Positions 49,415 through 64,000 are shown, counted from the stretch's first letter. The stretch: DNA of 64,000 nt from an uncultured delta proteobacterium (GCA_963745035.1 CAVUVW010000017.1:128001-192000); one strand, 5' to 3'. The notes: generated from the letters alone by a model not told the origin. Numbers and translations are program-made.

Positions 49415-49491
49415 CCAACATTTTCGATTCCGATTGCCGATTTTGGATTGTCGGAGTCAGATCGAAATAGCCGTCTAATAATTTCACGCAT
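49415..49491 (-). pseudogene. orphan 5' leader of an array unit
   Basis: Reads MREIIRRLFRSDSDNPKS; near-matches the leader of copy 7 (MLEIIGQLFRSHSDNRRS, about 56495-56544). Confidence 0.65.
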
Positions 49492-49548
49492 CCTTCCCGT
49501 CTCTTCATCCCAACCGCTTACTCACGCCTCTCGCCTCACGGCTCACGC

Positions 49549-50545
49549 CTACTTGATCACCTTGTCCGCTCGCGCCAACACGTTAGGAGGAATCGTCAGA
49601 CCAATCTGCTTCGCCGCAATGAGGTTGATCACGCAGCTCGAACTTTGTCGGCTGTCGACCGGCAGGTCGGCGGGCTTGGCGCCTTTCAAAATCTTGTCCA
49701 CATACGTTGCGGCGTGCTTGCACAGGTCCGCGAAATCATCGCGTCCATAGGACATCAAGTCCGCCGGCTTCGACAAATTCTCTCTGGCTGTAAATCGGCT
49801 GGAAGCCGGTTCTTGCGCCATGAGTTCTACGACCTGGGTTACGGAATGTAAAAGGAGGACCGAGTTCCCCAGCGCAAGAATTGCCTAGCGCGCCCCTTGC
49901 TTGCGGCTCGGAAGGCGTCTCAATATCTTTCGGGACCTAGCATCTCAAGGTATTGAAGCTTCACTCCGAACGTCGGCGCGCGCAAAGCCGCTTTCCATCC
50001 TCTTAGGGACTCGTGGGTTACCCGGAATAGTCGAATTCCCGAGAACGGCCACGCGAGAGAGCCTGGGAACGATCTCTTTCAGAAGCTCCAATTGCTTTCC
50101 GCTTATCTCCGGCGAAAGGTTGAAGTCCTGTGACGTTCCCGCCAGGTCGCGCCAAGCTAGCGACGATGCCATTCCAACAGGATCGAAATCCTGTGCCATG
50201 ACAACGGGAATCGTATTGGTCGCCTCCCTGGCGGCACGGGTTGATCCCGGACCTCCCGTGACGATGATATCGACCTTGAGACGCACCAGTTCAGCCGCCA
50301 GTGCGGGAAGCCGTTCTGACTTTCCATCGCGTTTCGCCTCTCAATGACGATGTTTTTTCCCGGCACATATCCAAGCTCGCGCAGGCCATGGAGGAATGCG
50401 TCGTACCGATCCGAGATAGAGGAATGCGAGGGAGTCAGCGAGATAGCCTATCCGCGGAACTTTCTTCGGCTGCTGCGCCCCGAGCGGACGAGCAAAGCGC
50501 AAAGAGCATGGCGCAAAGCGCTACCGCAGAAATGTTTCGCTTCAT
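49549..50545 (-). pseudogene. ABC_sub_bind SBP copy 1 (many frameshifts; may be sequencing error)
   Basis: [18 protein letters not shown] leader; [23 protein letters not shown]...[10 protein letters not shown]. Confidence 0.85.
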
Positions 50546-50583
50546 TGTTCTCATCTCACGCCTTACGCCTCACGGCTCACGGC

Positions 50584-51570
50584 TCACTGAATCACTTTGA
50601 TCCGCCCGCGCCAGCACTTTCGGCGGAATCGTCACACCGATCTGCTTCGCCGTTTTTAGATTGATCACCAACTCGAACTTCGTCGGCTGCTCGACGGGAA
50701 GATCGGCGGGCTTGGCGCCTTTCAGAATCTTATCGACGTAAAAGGCGACGCGCCGGTAGCTGTCCGCGAGGTTCGCTCCGTAGGACATGAGCCCACCGGC
50801 ATCTACAGCTTCTCGGCTGTCATAAATCGACGGTAACCGGCTCTTTAACGCGAAGCTGCCGCAATGCGTTTTTGGTTATTTGTCTGCCCCTCGCGGGACC
50901 CGGAAAGTACGATCAAAGCGGCAGGGCGCTGCTTGAGCGCGGCGGAATATCTGCTCAGATATCACGCTCGCATCTCGTACCTCCAAAGGTTGGATAGTCA
51001 GCCCTAGGGCAAGGCGCGCTTGGAAGGAGCTTTTTCAATTCTCGTGCATTGGCTGCGGAGTGGCCGGCGGATCAGATAACAGCGACGCGGGCAACTTTGG
51101 GAACCGCTTCCTTGAGAAGCTCCAGCCTTTTACCGGTTATTTCCGCTGCAAGTTTGGAATGCCGGTAACGTTGCCGCCAGGTCGGGCAAGGCTGTCTACA
51201 AACAGGTCGCCGACAGGATCGGTACCCAGCGCCATAACGATGGGAATCGTCTTGGTCGCATCCTTGGCCGCTCGGAGTCCACTGGGTGCCCCTGTGATGA
51301 TGATATCGACCTTGAGACGCACGAGGTCAGCCGCAAGCTCCGGGCAGGCGATCGAGTTTCCCCTCTGCATAGCGGTACTCGATGGCGATGTTCTGTCCTT
51401 CGACGTAACCAATCTCGCGCAGAGCCATGCCGAAAAACCTCGAGACGACCGACATTCGCCGAAGCGGGGCTGTGCCAGATAAGCTATCCGGGGGATTTTC
51501 GTTGGCTTCTGCGCCTTGGCTGAAAAAAAGTTATCATCAAAGAGTAAGTAACCAGAATTTTTGAATTCAT
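50584..51570 (-). pseudogene. ABC_sub_bind SBP copy 2 (many frameshifts)
   Basis: MNSKILV start; [33 protein letters not shown]. Confidence 0.85.
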
Positions 51571-51619
51571 AGTTTTCGCTGTTTTCTACGACAACTGATT
51601 ACTGAACACTGGCACTGTT

Positions 51620-52622
51620 TCATTTGATTACCGATCCGCTCGCGCCAGGACATTCGGTGGAATCGTCAGACCGATCTGCTTCGCGGTTTTGAGATTGATC
51701 ACGAAATCAAATTTCGTCGGCCCCTCGACCGGTAGATCTGCGGGTTTTGTTCCTTTGAGGATTTTGTCCACGTAAGCGGCGACACGGCGATATATAAAGA
51801 TGTAGTCTGGTCCGTAGGACATGAGTCCGCCAGCTTCCACGAACTCCCTGTCTCCGTACATGGTTGGAAGGCGGCTCTTTCCCGCAAGTTCCGCGATCTG
51901 TGGGTGGTGAATAGCGGTAAGAGGATTCCTCAGAACGAGCAGTGCTTGAGCACGGCCCTTGCTGGCGGCTAGAATGCCGGTTCAATTTCCTTGGGAGTCT
52001 GTACATCTAGGTTTTGGATCTGCAGCCCGAACGTTTTGCGGCAACTTCCGTCTCTTTCAACACTTGTGGGTTGCCGGGGACTTTCGAATTACCGAAGAAA
52101 GCTACACGGGAGAGCTTGGGGATGGCCTCCTTCAGAACCTCCAGTCGCTTCCCGGCCAAGCTCGGCTGAAGTGAGGCAAGCCCCGTGATATTTCCGCCCG
52201 GCCGCGCCACGCTGGCGACGTAGCCCTGATCCGACAGGATCGCTAACGTTTGTAATGACGATGGGGATTGTTCTGGTAGCATTCTTAGCATGCGAGATTG
52301 CCGGACCTGCTGCCCAGATGACCTCAACATTGAGACGCACTAACTCCTCCGCAAGATTGGGTAGCCGGTCCACTTTTCCTTCGGCATAGCGGTATTCGAT
52401 GACGATATTCTTGCCTTCCAGGTAACCCAGATCGCGCATTGCCTGTTGAAATGTCTCGACCGGAAGAGTGCCAGGCGCATCGGCTCTCAGCACGCCTACT
52501 CTGCGGACCTTTGCAGGCTCCTGCGCCGACGCAGAATAGCTAAGCGCAAGGAGCATGGCGCAAAGCGCGATGGAGAAGAGGCTCTTGCTGACGACTGACC
52601 ACTGACTACTGACTACTTTCAT
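51620..52622 (-). CDS. ABC_sub_bind SBP copy 3 (frameshifted)
   Basis: ORF pieces 52089-52622, 52007-52330 and 51628-51861. Confidence 0.87.
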
Positions 52623-61861: not shown

Positions 61862-61871
61862 CCATCTAAAG

Positions 61872-62008
61872 AAAATCCGAAATCCGAATATCGAAATCCG
61901 AAACAAACGGACGCGAAAGCGGACTTTGAGTTCCCGAGCACCGTTTTAGAGTTTTGCCCTTGGTCGTTTCGATTTGTTTCGAGCTTCGGATTTCGAATTT
62001 CGGGTTTT
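61872..62008. repeat. heptamer-period inverted repeat (AATCCGA / TCGGATT)
   Basis: aaaatccgaaatccgaatatcgaaatccgaaacaaa ... tttgtttcgagcttcggatttcgaatttcgggtttt. Confidence 0.8.
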
Positions 62009-62015
62009 AAACAGA

Positions 62016-62998
62016 TCATCGGATTACTTTGTCGGCTCTAGCCAGAACATTGGGCGGAATTGTTAACCCGATCTGCTTGGCGGCTTTGAGATTAATCACC
62101 AGCTCGAACTTCGTCGGCTGCTCGATCGGCAAGTCCGCCGGCTTGGCGCCTTTCAGAATCTTGTCAACATACGTGGCGGCGCGCCGGACAAGTCGCGTAA
62201 TGCTCGCGCCATAGGTCATAAGCCCCCGGCTTCCACAAATTCTCAGTCTGGCTGTATATCGCCGGCAGCCGGTTCTTTGCCGCGAGCTCTACAATCTGTG
62301 TTCGCTGTAAAATTGATAACGGGTTCCCCAACACAAGGACTGCGTCAGCGCGCCCCTTCCTTGCGTCTCGGAATGCAGTCTCAATCTCCTTGGGATCAAG
62401 TACGTCAAGTACTGAAGCTTCACTCCGAACGCGCCTGCGGCCAGTTCCATCTCTCTTAACGACTGCGGGTTGCCCGAGGGTCGAATTCCCGAAAACGGCA
62501 ACGCGGGAGAGCTCCCGGAACGATTTCCTTCAGCAGCTCCAATTGCTTTCCGCTTATCTCCGGCGCAAGAGTTGACAATCCCGTGATGTTCCCGCCAGGC
62601 CGCGCCAAGGCTGGCTACAAGCCCCTTTCCAACCGGATCGAATCCAAGGCCATGACAATGGGAATCGTAGAGGTCGCGTCCTTGGCGGGGCGGGTTGATC
62701 TCGGACCCGCCGTGACGATGACCTCTACCTTGAGATGCACTAATTCAGCCGCCAGGTCAGGAAGCCGATCTTGTCTTTCCCTCGCCAGTTCGAAACTCAA
62801 TGACGATGTCTTTCCCCTCCACATATCCAAGCTCGCGCAGGCCCTGGCGGAATGCCTCGTACCGATCCGAGATAGAGGAATGCGAGGGAGTAGCGAGGAA
62901 TCCTATCCGGGGAATTTTCTTGACTGCTGCGCCTGAACGGACGAACAAAAAGCAAAGAGCATGGCGCAAATCGCAACCGCAGAAATCTCTCGCTTCAT
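62016..62998 (-). pseudogene. ABC_sub_bind SBP copy 13 (many frameshifts; 5' part close to copy 1)
   Basis: MKREISAVAICAMLFAF leader; shares cgtaccgatccgagatagaggaatgcgagggagt with copy 1; tail [10 protein letters not shown]. Confidence 0.85.
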
Positions 62999-63036
62999 TC
63001 TCCTCACCTCACGCCTTACGCCTCGCGACTCACGCC

Positions 63037-64000
63037 TCACCGAATCACCTTATCCGCCCGCGCCAGCACCTTCTGTGGAATCGTCACACCGATCTGTTTG
63101 GCGGTTTTCAGGTTGATCACCATCGTTAATTTTGTCGGGGCTTCAACCGGCAAATCAGCCGGCTTGGCGCCCTTGAGGATCTTGTCCACATACCTCGCGG
63201 CGCGCCGGTACGAATCGCTGGGGTCCCGCCCGTACGATATGAGCCCGCCAGCCTCGGTATCGAGATTCGTTGCCGAAACAACCCGTAGACGGCTTTTGGC
63301 TGCTAACTCCACGAACTGCTTGCGGTGAGCAGAGGGATACCGGGAGGCAGCCGGCTGAGAAGAGCTTCGGCCCGTTCTTTGATCGCAGCTCGAACGGTCT
63401 CGTCGTAGTCTTCCGGTCCCCGAACCAGCAGGGAGATAAGCTCTACTTTCAATCCGCGAGCGGGAACTTCTATCTCTTTGACAAAAAGTTTGTTCGCTGA
63501 GCCAAGCTCACGCGCTTGACCGCCTGGGATCACGAGCGCCACGCGCTTGATCTTCGAATCGATCTCCTTGAGCAGCTCCAGGAGTTTTCCCCCCAGCTCT
63601 CCGCTAATGCTTGTCAGTCCGGTGACGTTTCCACCCGGTCGCGCCAGGCTGGCGACGAGCCCGTTGCCCACAGGATCCGTGGTGGATGTCATGACAATGG
63701 GAATTGTGCCGGTCGCTTTCTTCGCGGCAACGGCCGGTCCAGTGCCATCCCCGATGATCACGTCAACTTTGAGGCGGATGAGGTCGGCAAGAAGGTCAGG
63801 GTACCGATCGCGGTTCGCTTCAGCATAGCGGTACTCGATGACAAGGTTCTTGCCCTCGACGTAACCGAGGTCGCGCAGCCCTTGCCGCAAGGCCTCGATG
63901 TCGGGCGAAGAACGGGGAAATCCCCCCGATAGAACAGCTATCCGGTGAAGTTTCGCCGGCTGCTGCGCCCTGACAGGCAAGCAAAGCGCAAAGAGCATGG
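63037..64000 (-). CDS. ABC_sub_bind SBP copy 14 (one frameshift; 5' end probably beyond the window)
   Basis: ORF pieces 63303-63998 and 63037-63312. Confidence 0.88.

Follow-up and report, generated by a model that had tools for sequence, protein, structure and literature searches.

The 64,000-nucleotide stretch analysed here (the window; CAVUVW010000017.1:128001-192000 of GCA_963745035.1, that is, C17:128001-192000) belongs to a metagenome-assembled genome (MAG) of 7.43 Mb in 28 contigs, which is 92.6% complete with 5.8% contamination. Positions 49552-64000 of the window are occupied by 14 co-oriented units of about 1 kb on the minus strand, all members of PF04392 (ABC_sub_bind), an ATP-binding cassette (ABC)-type family of solute-binding proteins. 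Intact copies from the same genome served to build a profile, with which all six frames were searched; the unit coordinates are collected in Table 1. Spacers between units within the window measure -6 to 338 nt. Ten more units and one lone tail follow beyond the window edge, to C17:204477, and the whole array comprises about 24 units plus the lone tail, arranged head to tail over 27 kb. A first-pass annotation, made from the sequence alone, had described at least 14 such paralogs running past the window edge, thirteen of them with a conserved tail, and the mapping agrees on both counts: the end of the family model, which corresponds to the tail, is reached by 13 of the 14 units, the exception being unit 7, which ends at position 293 of 346. 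The same annotation had listed them as co-oriented receptor genes of about 1 kb; in the assembled sequence just two of the 14 form continuous open reading frames (ORFs), and the genes lie on the minus strand.

The Pfam model of PF04392 has 123 matches in the genome, among them all 14 window units, and the two open ORFs of the window score 167.7 and 170.3 bits (curated cut-off 25.9). The genome-derived profile recognizes 97 units genome-wide, of which 81 are approximately full length and 48 lie in one frame. Unit 11, which alone among the 14 window units is canonical throughout, matches solved members of the family over residues 55-336 of 337, with E values of 2.3e-33 (3LKV), 3e-28 (6HNI) and 1.5e-26 (3LFT). 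By this resemblance the array proteins would adopt the two-lobe class I (cluster B) fold, with the ligand held at the interface of the lobes. Their closest public relatives come from soil MAGs labelled Candidatus Binatia or 'Deltaproteobacteria', and the host is a soil bacterium of the uncultured class Binatia. Members of this class are abundant in soils and have so far escaped cultivation.

Table 1. Units of the PF04392 array and neighbouring features; positions are those of the window unless a contig or locus is named
Feature	Position	Strand	Description
Unit 1	49552-50429	-	three pieces; model 57-345; 5' end undetected; nearest units 13 (77%) and 4 (73%)
Unit 2	50597-51526	-	three pieces; model 37-342; nearest units 6, 9 and 7 (71-73%)
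Unit 3	51631-52616	-	three pieces; frame changes near 52218 and 51998; reciprocal best match to an intact G018 unit (81%)
Unit 4	52622-53624	-	three pieces; frame changes near 52971 and 52739; 77% to units 13 and 24
Unit 5	53663-54640	-	open ORF, 325 aa; compensated +1/+2 frameshift; 93% to unit 8
Unit 6	54697-55628	-	five pieces, 4 frame changes; 5' end fused to truncated unit 7
Unit 7	55623-56352	-	partial tandem copy of unit 6, lacking the last ~157 nt (tail)
Unit 8	56595-57537	-	three pieces; with unit 9, block copy of units 5+6
Unit 9	57632-58632	-	four pieces, including one same-frame stop near 58061-58083
Palindromic intergenic element	58618-58732	-	between units 10 and 9; arms GGATTTTGGATT ... 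AATCCAAAATC
Unit 10	58735-59753	-	three pieces; frame changes near 59504 and 58930; most divergent (at most 62% to any unit)
Unit 11	59769-60782	-	intact ORF, 337 aa; signal peptide; full tail
Unit 12	60815-61680	-	four pieces
Spacer	61820-62010		minus strand; short tail remnant and second palindromic AT-rich element (61870-62010), read off the sequence
Unit 13	62019-63025	-	five pieces, including one same-frame stop near 62608-62639
Unit 14	63040-64000	-	two pieces; frame change near 63351; extends past the window edge to 64052
Left flank, NMT1-type gene	45355-46398	+	binding-protein gene, conserved; Pfam
Left flank, NMT1-type gene	46468-47460	-	binding-protein gene, conserved; Pfam
Left part of segment absent in relatives	47392-49551		two small ORFs, 48015-48554 (-) and 48902-49381 (+)
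dCache-HAMP-GAF and HisKA-HATPase ORFs	C14:413985-416928 (L005:17985-19832, L006:53-928)	+	beside the C14 array

Nucleotide identities between the units reproduce exactly the groups of close relatives named in the first-pass annotation: units 5 and 8 (93%), units 2, 6, 7 and 9 (71-90%) and units 1, 4 and 13 (73-77%), most other pairs being 55-65% identical. Beyond the window the groups extend to 5, 8, 15 and 16, to 6, 7, 23 and 17, and to 1, 4, 13, 24 and 21. The annotation had held that such interleaving of close relatives is not easily given by tandem duplication, an objection that falls away once blocks of units are considered. Units 5 and 6 with their spacer (C17:181651-183620) align with units 8 and 9 with their spacer (184579-186555) in a single alignment of 1,996 nt at 87% identity, and this block copy by itself yields the interleaved order. 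Unit 7 matches unit 6 over 783 nt at 91%, is truncated ahead of the tail and is fused to unit 6, and the succession of a type-6 and a type-5 unit is seen again as units 17 and 16. The interleaving is thus accounted for by duplication of multi-unit blocks through unequal crossing-over, and a special mechanism is not needed.

In a tree of 114 units the arrays of the source genome are intermingled with one another and with units of the closest genome, G018. For several array units the best match, at 87-92% identity, belongs to a different array of the source genome. Since no between-array pair exceeds 92%, duplicates contributed by a contaminating strain are unlikely. In our own permutation test of the pairwise homoplasy index (PHI) type, compatible sites were clustered in three clades (p 0.001, 0.019 and 0.001), which suggests, as only a hint, some gene conversion; rate variation or a consensus of mixed reads would be alternative sources of the signal.

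Comparison with relatives places the expansion within one genus. Every one of the 24 same-genus genomes searched has PF04392 matches (23 of 23 if the unpublished G005 is set aside), and first-look candidates range from 4 to 218 per genome. Of two sister families, one has matches in 0 of 11 genomes and the other in four of five (up to 31 candidates), and in 80 other genomes sampled from the phylum the first-look candidates never exceed 16 per genome. The expansion is lineage-specific and genus-wide. At the site of the window array, the left NMT1 genes and the right thiolase-like gene stand about 185 nt apart in G004 and are adjacent also in G019 and G014, so that a segment of 29.7 kb (C17:175392-205079) is absent there; the site is therefore empty in three of the five same-genus genomes compared. 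It is occupied in G018, whose flanks are 77-86% identical and which carries a 36-unit array at the same site, an array that is divided between two contigs, at the end of the first and the start of the second, and was joined by inference. Reciprocal best matches in G018 were found for eight of 22 full-length units (69-89% identity), and their order is only partly kept, the two arrays being differently composed. The borders of the 29.7-kb segment showed no direct, terminal or target-site repeats, only two 11-nt chance matches. The proposal in the first-pass annotation that units are gained, lost and rearranged is accordingly sound over evolutionary time, as the empty sites and the eight of 22 matches indicate; its casting of this turnover as a recombination-cassette system is not supported.

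Taken together, these observations are best explained by a lineage-specific expansion of orphan binding proteins through unequal recombination, with no dedicated cassette machinery, a reading to which we assign a probability of roughly 0.7. Under this reading the window region would represent the promoter-distal half of a 27-kb array of about 24 genes for Sec-exported type I periplasmic solute-binding proteins. Repeated unequal homologous recombination would have copied single units and multi-unit blocks, accompanied by deletion and by occasional movement of copies between arrays.

An array of this kind might also be produced by the assembler, through the stacking of dispersed paralogs into an artificial row. 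Three contigs (C1, C2 and C15) begin inside such arrays, and among the contigs from four metagenome runs, all of them short, none bridged two units, which weighs against the array as we read it. The units, however, are 7-45% apart and would be kept separate in assembly; the array is continuous with unique sequence at either end, and G018 has an array at the same site; among many-contig assemblies, that of G012 has as many as 17 full-length units within a single stretch of 19.7 kb; and metagenome contigs of other projects carry up to three complete adjacent units. Mis-assembly is therefore considered extremely unlikely. As a separate observation, the contig starts in question lie at C1 (224), C2 (1-26508) and C15 (1-3832), which indicates that PF04392 arrays break the assembly. 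Runs X1, X2, X5 and X8 (soil, rhizosphere and hydrocarbon metagenomes from different studies) each placed 1,484-21,342 contigs on window positions 49001-64000; such thousands of short contigs on conserved unit parts, at 93% identity or more, mark the subfamily as very abundant and diverse in soils.

The conserved ends of the units deserve separate consideration, as they bear on how the array changes. Among 45 intact units the last 45 codons have a median proportion of nonsynonymous differences (pN) of 0.09 and of synonymous differences (pS) of 0.70, against 0.39 and 0.74 in the body, and third-position identity is 0.49 in the tail versus 0.34 in the body. Because pN is low while synonymous sites are as saturated as elsewhere, the tail is conserved as protein and has not been homogenised by recombination. 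Its motif, ILKGxKPxDLPV...VINLK.A..LG..IP..VL, is also visible in the Vibrio, Clostridioides and Streptococcus structures (3LKV, 6HNI and 3LFT), and two peptide patterns derived from it matched at least 587 stretches, in Binatia, Methylomirabilota/Rokubacteria, NC10, Variovorax, Syntrophobacteraceae, Hyphomicrobiaceae and others. In solved PF04392 proteins two residues set the specificity for Phe, Tyr or Trp (PMC6816091). By our own unchecked mapping, through alignment with the solved proteins, these residues would fall within the tail (Met of GGLMSYG and Tyr of AxYVDKIL), which would make the tail partly a wall of the ligand pocket; the residue aligned with specificity position Ala-246/Glu-263 is Met, neither Ala nor Glu. 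Purifying selection on the protein probably maintains the tail as a part of structure and ligand pocket common to the whole family.

The longest exact matches between units that are otherwise 55-62% identical also sit in the tail, as runs of 28-49 nt, and 37 of the 40 most significant identical-run pairs (3,003 pairs tested) fall in tail columns. Holding the longest exact matches, the tail is a plausible preferred point of crossing-over, as a by-product of its conservation as protein, and its identical stretches of 30-49 nt would probably act in this way during unequal recombination, to judge from the identical runs. At the other end of the units, the leader read from the unit alignment is a Sec-type signal peptide ending in AxA-QQ, and no lipobox was seen in the aligned leaders. 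Variable stretches in the unit alignment directly follow the conserved strands IGxL, TIPIV and NITG. Class I binding proteins usually carry their ligand loops after strands of this kind.

Conserved ends and long identical runs in the tail would also fit the comparison with integrons and antigenic variation made in the first-pass annotation, in other words a programmed system whose mobile or convertible units are exchanged at their ends. The clustering in three clades in the PHI-type test, the close unit relatives in other arrays and the difference in order between two species could be read in the same sense. The PHI signal, however, has the other possible sources named above, the tail is a family-wide motif across phyla with saturated synonymous sites, and most units, at 55-65% identity, are too diverged for frequent conversion. 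Each unit is a full gene with its own start and signal peptide, and no distinct expression site was found. The array was followed past 64 kb, where the annotation had proposed a search for a recombinase, a reverse transcriptase or a transporter core; among the ten flanking ORFs scanned against Pfam (five per side) there was no integrase or other recombinase, no reverse transcriptase, no regulator and no transporter partner. These ORFs comprise a thiolase-like protein, a major facilitator superfamily (MFS) transporter, hydantoinase B, two NMT1-type proteins and five without a family. Rfam gave no family at gathering score in window positions 47000-64000, only a sub-threshold match to a microRNA family on the palindromic spacer, and the bare borders of the 29.7-kb segment have already been described. 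A programmed cassette system is consequently judged very unlikely, and the comparison with integrons and antigenic variation is not sustained.

The AT-rich palindromic elements with GGATTTTGGATT and AATCCAAAATC arms were seen in only two spacers. Many metagenome contigs diverge at 58731, the edge of the element between units 10 and 9. A separate sequence of 33-45 nt recurs with 87-100% identity at dozens of intergenic sites in five same-genus genomes (for example L001:12965-12997 and window positions 43102-43140), and together with the palindromic elements it looks like the repetitive extragenic palindromic (REP)-like class of dispersed repeats. The two small ORFs to the left of the array have no Pfam family, and their paralogs are not array-associated. 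A scan for promoters and terminators returned fewer sites than shuffled sequence.

As assembled, 12 of the 14 window units are cut into two to five pieces by 26 frame changes and three same-frame stop sites. These 26 frame changes may be artefacts, and the array itself stands either way. Even the open unit 5, when compared with seven relatives, carries insertions of +1 and +2 nt placed 33 nt apart, by which 11 residues of the nearly invariant AAKxATxTIPIV region are replaced. Most of the breaks are probably long-read consensus errors, with most units intact in the organism, a view that draws first on the kind of lesion. Neutral decay would be expected, by our own estimate, to produce about one nonsense change for every two to three indels, and the PF04392 units of the genome show 67 frame changes versus 4 stops. 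Control families in the same assembly have the same indel-only pattern at a lower, Poisson-like rate: 351 NMT1-like units carry 52 frame changes and one stop, and 113 Amidohydro_2 units carry 29 frame changes and no stop. Expressed per unit, indel-type lesions affect 13% of NMT1, 21% of Amidohydro_2 and 41% of PF04392 units, and an NMT1-type gene at window positions 193-1145 (C17:128193-129145) is itself split into three pieces.

Short-read contigs and other assemblies point in the same direction. Units 3, 10, 12, 13 and 14 are covered by seven listed short-read contigs of soil run X1, and in each of these the number of gaps equals the number of frame-change sites spanned; the frame changes are missing from all seven. 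These X1 contigs are 94-100% identical to the window at a depth of 3-5, and the one on unit 10 matches over 607 nt without a mismatch and with a single gap. Of the 12 indel places best supported by metagenome contigs, seven lie within about 11 nt of a frame-change site. Among same-genus MAGs, full-length units lie in one frame in 73 of 82 cases where the assembly has many contigs (short-read type) versus 36 of 58 where it has few (long-read type; Fisher p 3e-4), which makes split units about 3.5 times commoner in the latter; in G018 the count is 18 of 33. In other taxa split units number 5 of 101 in short-read MAGs, 6 of 96 in Joint Genome Institute (JGI) contigs and 9 of 46 in MAGs of the long-read type. 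When units 10-14 were compared as DNA with 30 genomes of the genus, no match outside the source genome exceeded 82% identity. Orthologues of unit 10 in JGI metagenome contigs were tried as a frame reference and set aside, the best match having only 53% protein identity.

Several findings weigh against consensus error and favour real decay, in which the window part would be a young run of pseudogenes, possibly silenced when a unit nearer the promoter acquired a polar mutation. The number of lesions per unit is over-dispersed (0:48, 1:11, 2:12, 3:6, 4:3, 6:1) and lesions are clustered by array, with whole blocks affected: broken units make up 12 of 14 in the window versus four of ten beyond it and five of 24 in the C2 array. 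Counted as units in one frame, the arrays give 8 of 25 (C17), 19 of 24 (C2), 12 of 22 (C14:386-426 kb) and 0 of 4 (C14:130-136 kb). Among the 60 frameshifting indels, only three affect a homopolymer of 3 or more, and 21 span 2-7 nt. The rpoB, rpoC and two dnaE genes, about 15 kb of long essential sequence, are intact; units 9 and 13 contain two clear in-frame stops; truncated unit 7 and the lone tails represent real structural decay; and the window sequence is backed by the greater part of the contig depth at several of the indel places. Units are split in short-read data as well (5-11%), and the long- or short-read type of a MAG was judged only by contig number and names, the loci compared having been picked from hit lists. 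The share of substitutions at third positions is alike in broken units (0.42-0.57) and intact pairs (0.46-0.66), and no neutral period is therefore visible, which tells against decay, even though this codon-position test did not discriminate a pseudogene from an artefact. Given the dearth of stops, the X1 contigs and the excess of split units in few-contig MAGs, a decaying block is regarded as possible, though rather unlikely. Indel lesions without stops are common in multi-copy families, in the source assembly and in few-contig relatives, and apparent pseudogene arrays therefore need checks at the level of reads.

With consensus error preferred for most of the frame breaks, the array can be considered as a set of genes. 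In agreement with the first-pass annotation, the array units yielded no permease, ATPase, regulator or recombinase, and neither did the ten flanking ORFs; nor is there a match to the permease family PF02653 on C17 in the array or its flanks. By their signal peptides the array proteins are exported, and they are without a local transporter, in agreement with the earlier view of them as secreted ligand-binding proteins. Genome-wide, the 97 PF04392 units face 12 PF02653 matches, of which only one (C14:49370-50233) lies beside PF04392 genes. This sole PF04392-linked ABC set occupies 2652-9475 on the minus strand of C14:44-58 kb (L007, C14:44001-58000) and encodes, in order, a 661-aa protein with two PF04392 domains, a STAS protein, the permease, an ABC ATPase and a GAF-SpoIIE-HATPase protein; a binding-protein transporter is thus embedded here in genes of partner-switching signalling. 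Next to the 22-unit C14 array, 114 nt downstream on the same strand, a dCache-HAMP-GAF sensor ORF is followed by a HisKA-HATPase kinase ORF, and the two may be one kinase gene split by a frame change. No kinase was found beside the window array.

The most likely function would be that of a receptor panel, with proteins of differing specificities built on a common scaffold. The orphan receptors would hand their ligands to a shared membrane partner, either a single ABC translocator of the PF04392 type or sensor proteins. This picture draws on family membership and gene counts. Solved relatives bind aromatic amino acids and the genome holds 113 Amidohydro_2 units; aromatic or other organic acids are perhaps a reasonable guess as ligands, against which stands the Met at the aligned specificity position of the pocket. 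A more far-reaching version, that of a fast-evolving receptor library, is doubtful: here unequal crossing-over and gene conversion, both anchored in the tail, would continually change the order and size of a set of dozens of binding proteins, all docking through an invariant C-terminal module on one translocator or sensor. If it were true, the set of receptors would vary among co-existing strains, and a soil bacterium could keep pace with the varied chemistry of organic matter with no need for additional membrane machinery.

Whatever their partner, such receptors take up a large part of this genome, which devotes about 100 genes to PF04392 and about 350 to NMT1-type receptors versus a handful of matching permeases, and the array offers testable candidates for the ligands bound and for the membrane partner. 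The NMT1-type expansion exceeds that of PF04392: a genome-derived profile finds 351 full-length units, and the Pfam NMT1 model gives 453 first-look candidates, of which all 150 scored have E values of 1e-17 or below. These numbers rival the 434 genes reported for a comparable family in Rhodoplanes (PMC5994714). The 113 full-length units of Amidohydro_2 (decarboxylase/hydrolase-type) are represented in the window by the gene at 7329-8390 on the minus strand.

Among characterised PF04392 proteins, VC_1101 (3LKV) binds Phe, CD0873 (6HNI) binds Tyr and SP1069/TrpX (3LFT) binds Trp (PMC6816091). The array units belong to the same family by sequence, including the C-terminal ILKGxKPxDxPV...VIN...LGITIP...VL motif. 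They differ in setting, as the characterised proteins described in that source are encoded by single genes beside a permease and an ATPase and are lipoproteins in Gram-positives, whereas the units here are orphans with a cleavable AxA-QQ signal peptide. The canonical operon of an ABC importer, with a PF02653 permease and an ATPase adjoining, is accordingly not the arrangement of the C17 array.

Integron cassette arrays share with this locus co-oriented, tightly packed units of about 1 kb without regulators. They are set apart by an IntI-type integrase, which was not found in the five ORFs scanned per side, and by attI/attC-like sites, none of which was recognised here, where palindromes occur in only two spacers and the search used Rfam only, with no dedicated attC model; in addition, all units of the present array are mutually homologous and have their own translation start and signal peptide. 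Borrelia vls and Neisseria pilS are silent-cassette loci of antigenic variation. They resemble the present locus in that related copies, some of them non-coding, stand in an array and share conserved segments, and the differences are that no distinct expression copy was found, that the units are full length, that the conserved segments differ at the DNA level and that the products are periplasmic proteins, not surface antigens.

The closest parallel is provided by the orphan binding proteins of the tripartite tricarboxylate transporter (TTT, or 'Bug') family, which have expanded in Bordetella, Cupriavidus and Rhodoplanes sp. Z2-YC6860 (PMC5994714). Rhodoplanes has 434 TTT genes, with tandem arrays of up to nine that are called remarkable, the nearest copy of an array member often lies outside that array, elsewhere in the genome, and the proposed function is that of many receptors for few translocators, or for sensors (PMC5994714). 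In both cases lineage-specific exported binding proteins far outnumber the membrane components, and some form tandem arrays. The present family is PF04392, of the ABC type, and not TctC/PF03401, the phylum is another, and the arrays are much longer: the present one has 24 units, that of G018 has 36 and a single G012 contig has 17 full-length units, compared with the nine given for Rhodoplanes; the word pseudogene does not occur in the main text of that paper (PMC5994714). In the literature searched on PF04392/ABC_sub_bind arrays and on binding proteins of Binatota/Binatia, subscription journals and supplements lying outside the search, no such arrays were described, and those reported here are the longest of their kind that we found mentioned. 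The locus is thus of a known kind, a lineage-specific expansion of orphan binding proteins, and what is new is the ABC-type family, its occurrence in Binatia and the unusual length of the arrays, by which the orphan binding-protein puzzle posed by TTT/Bug proteins in Proteobacteria is extended to another family and another phylum.

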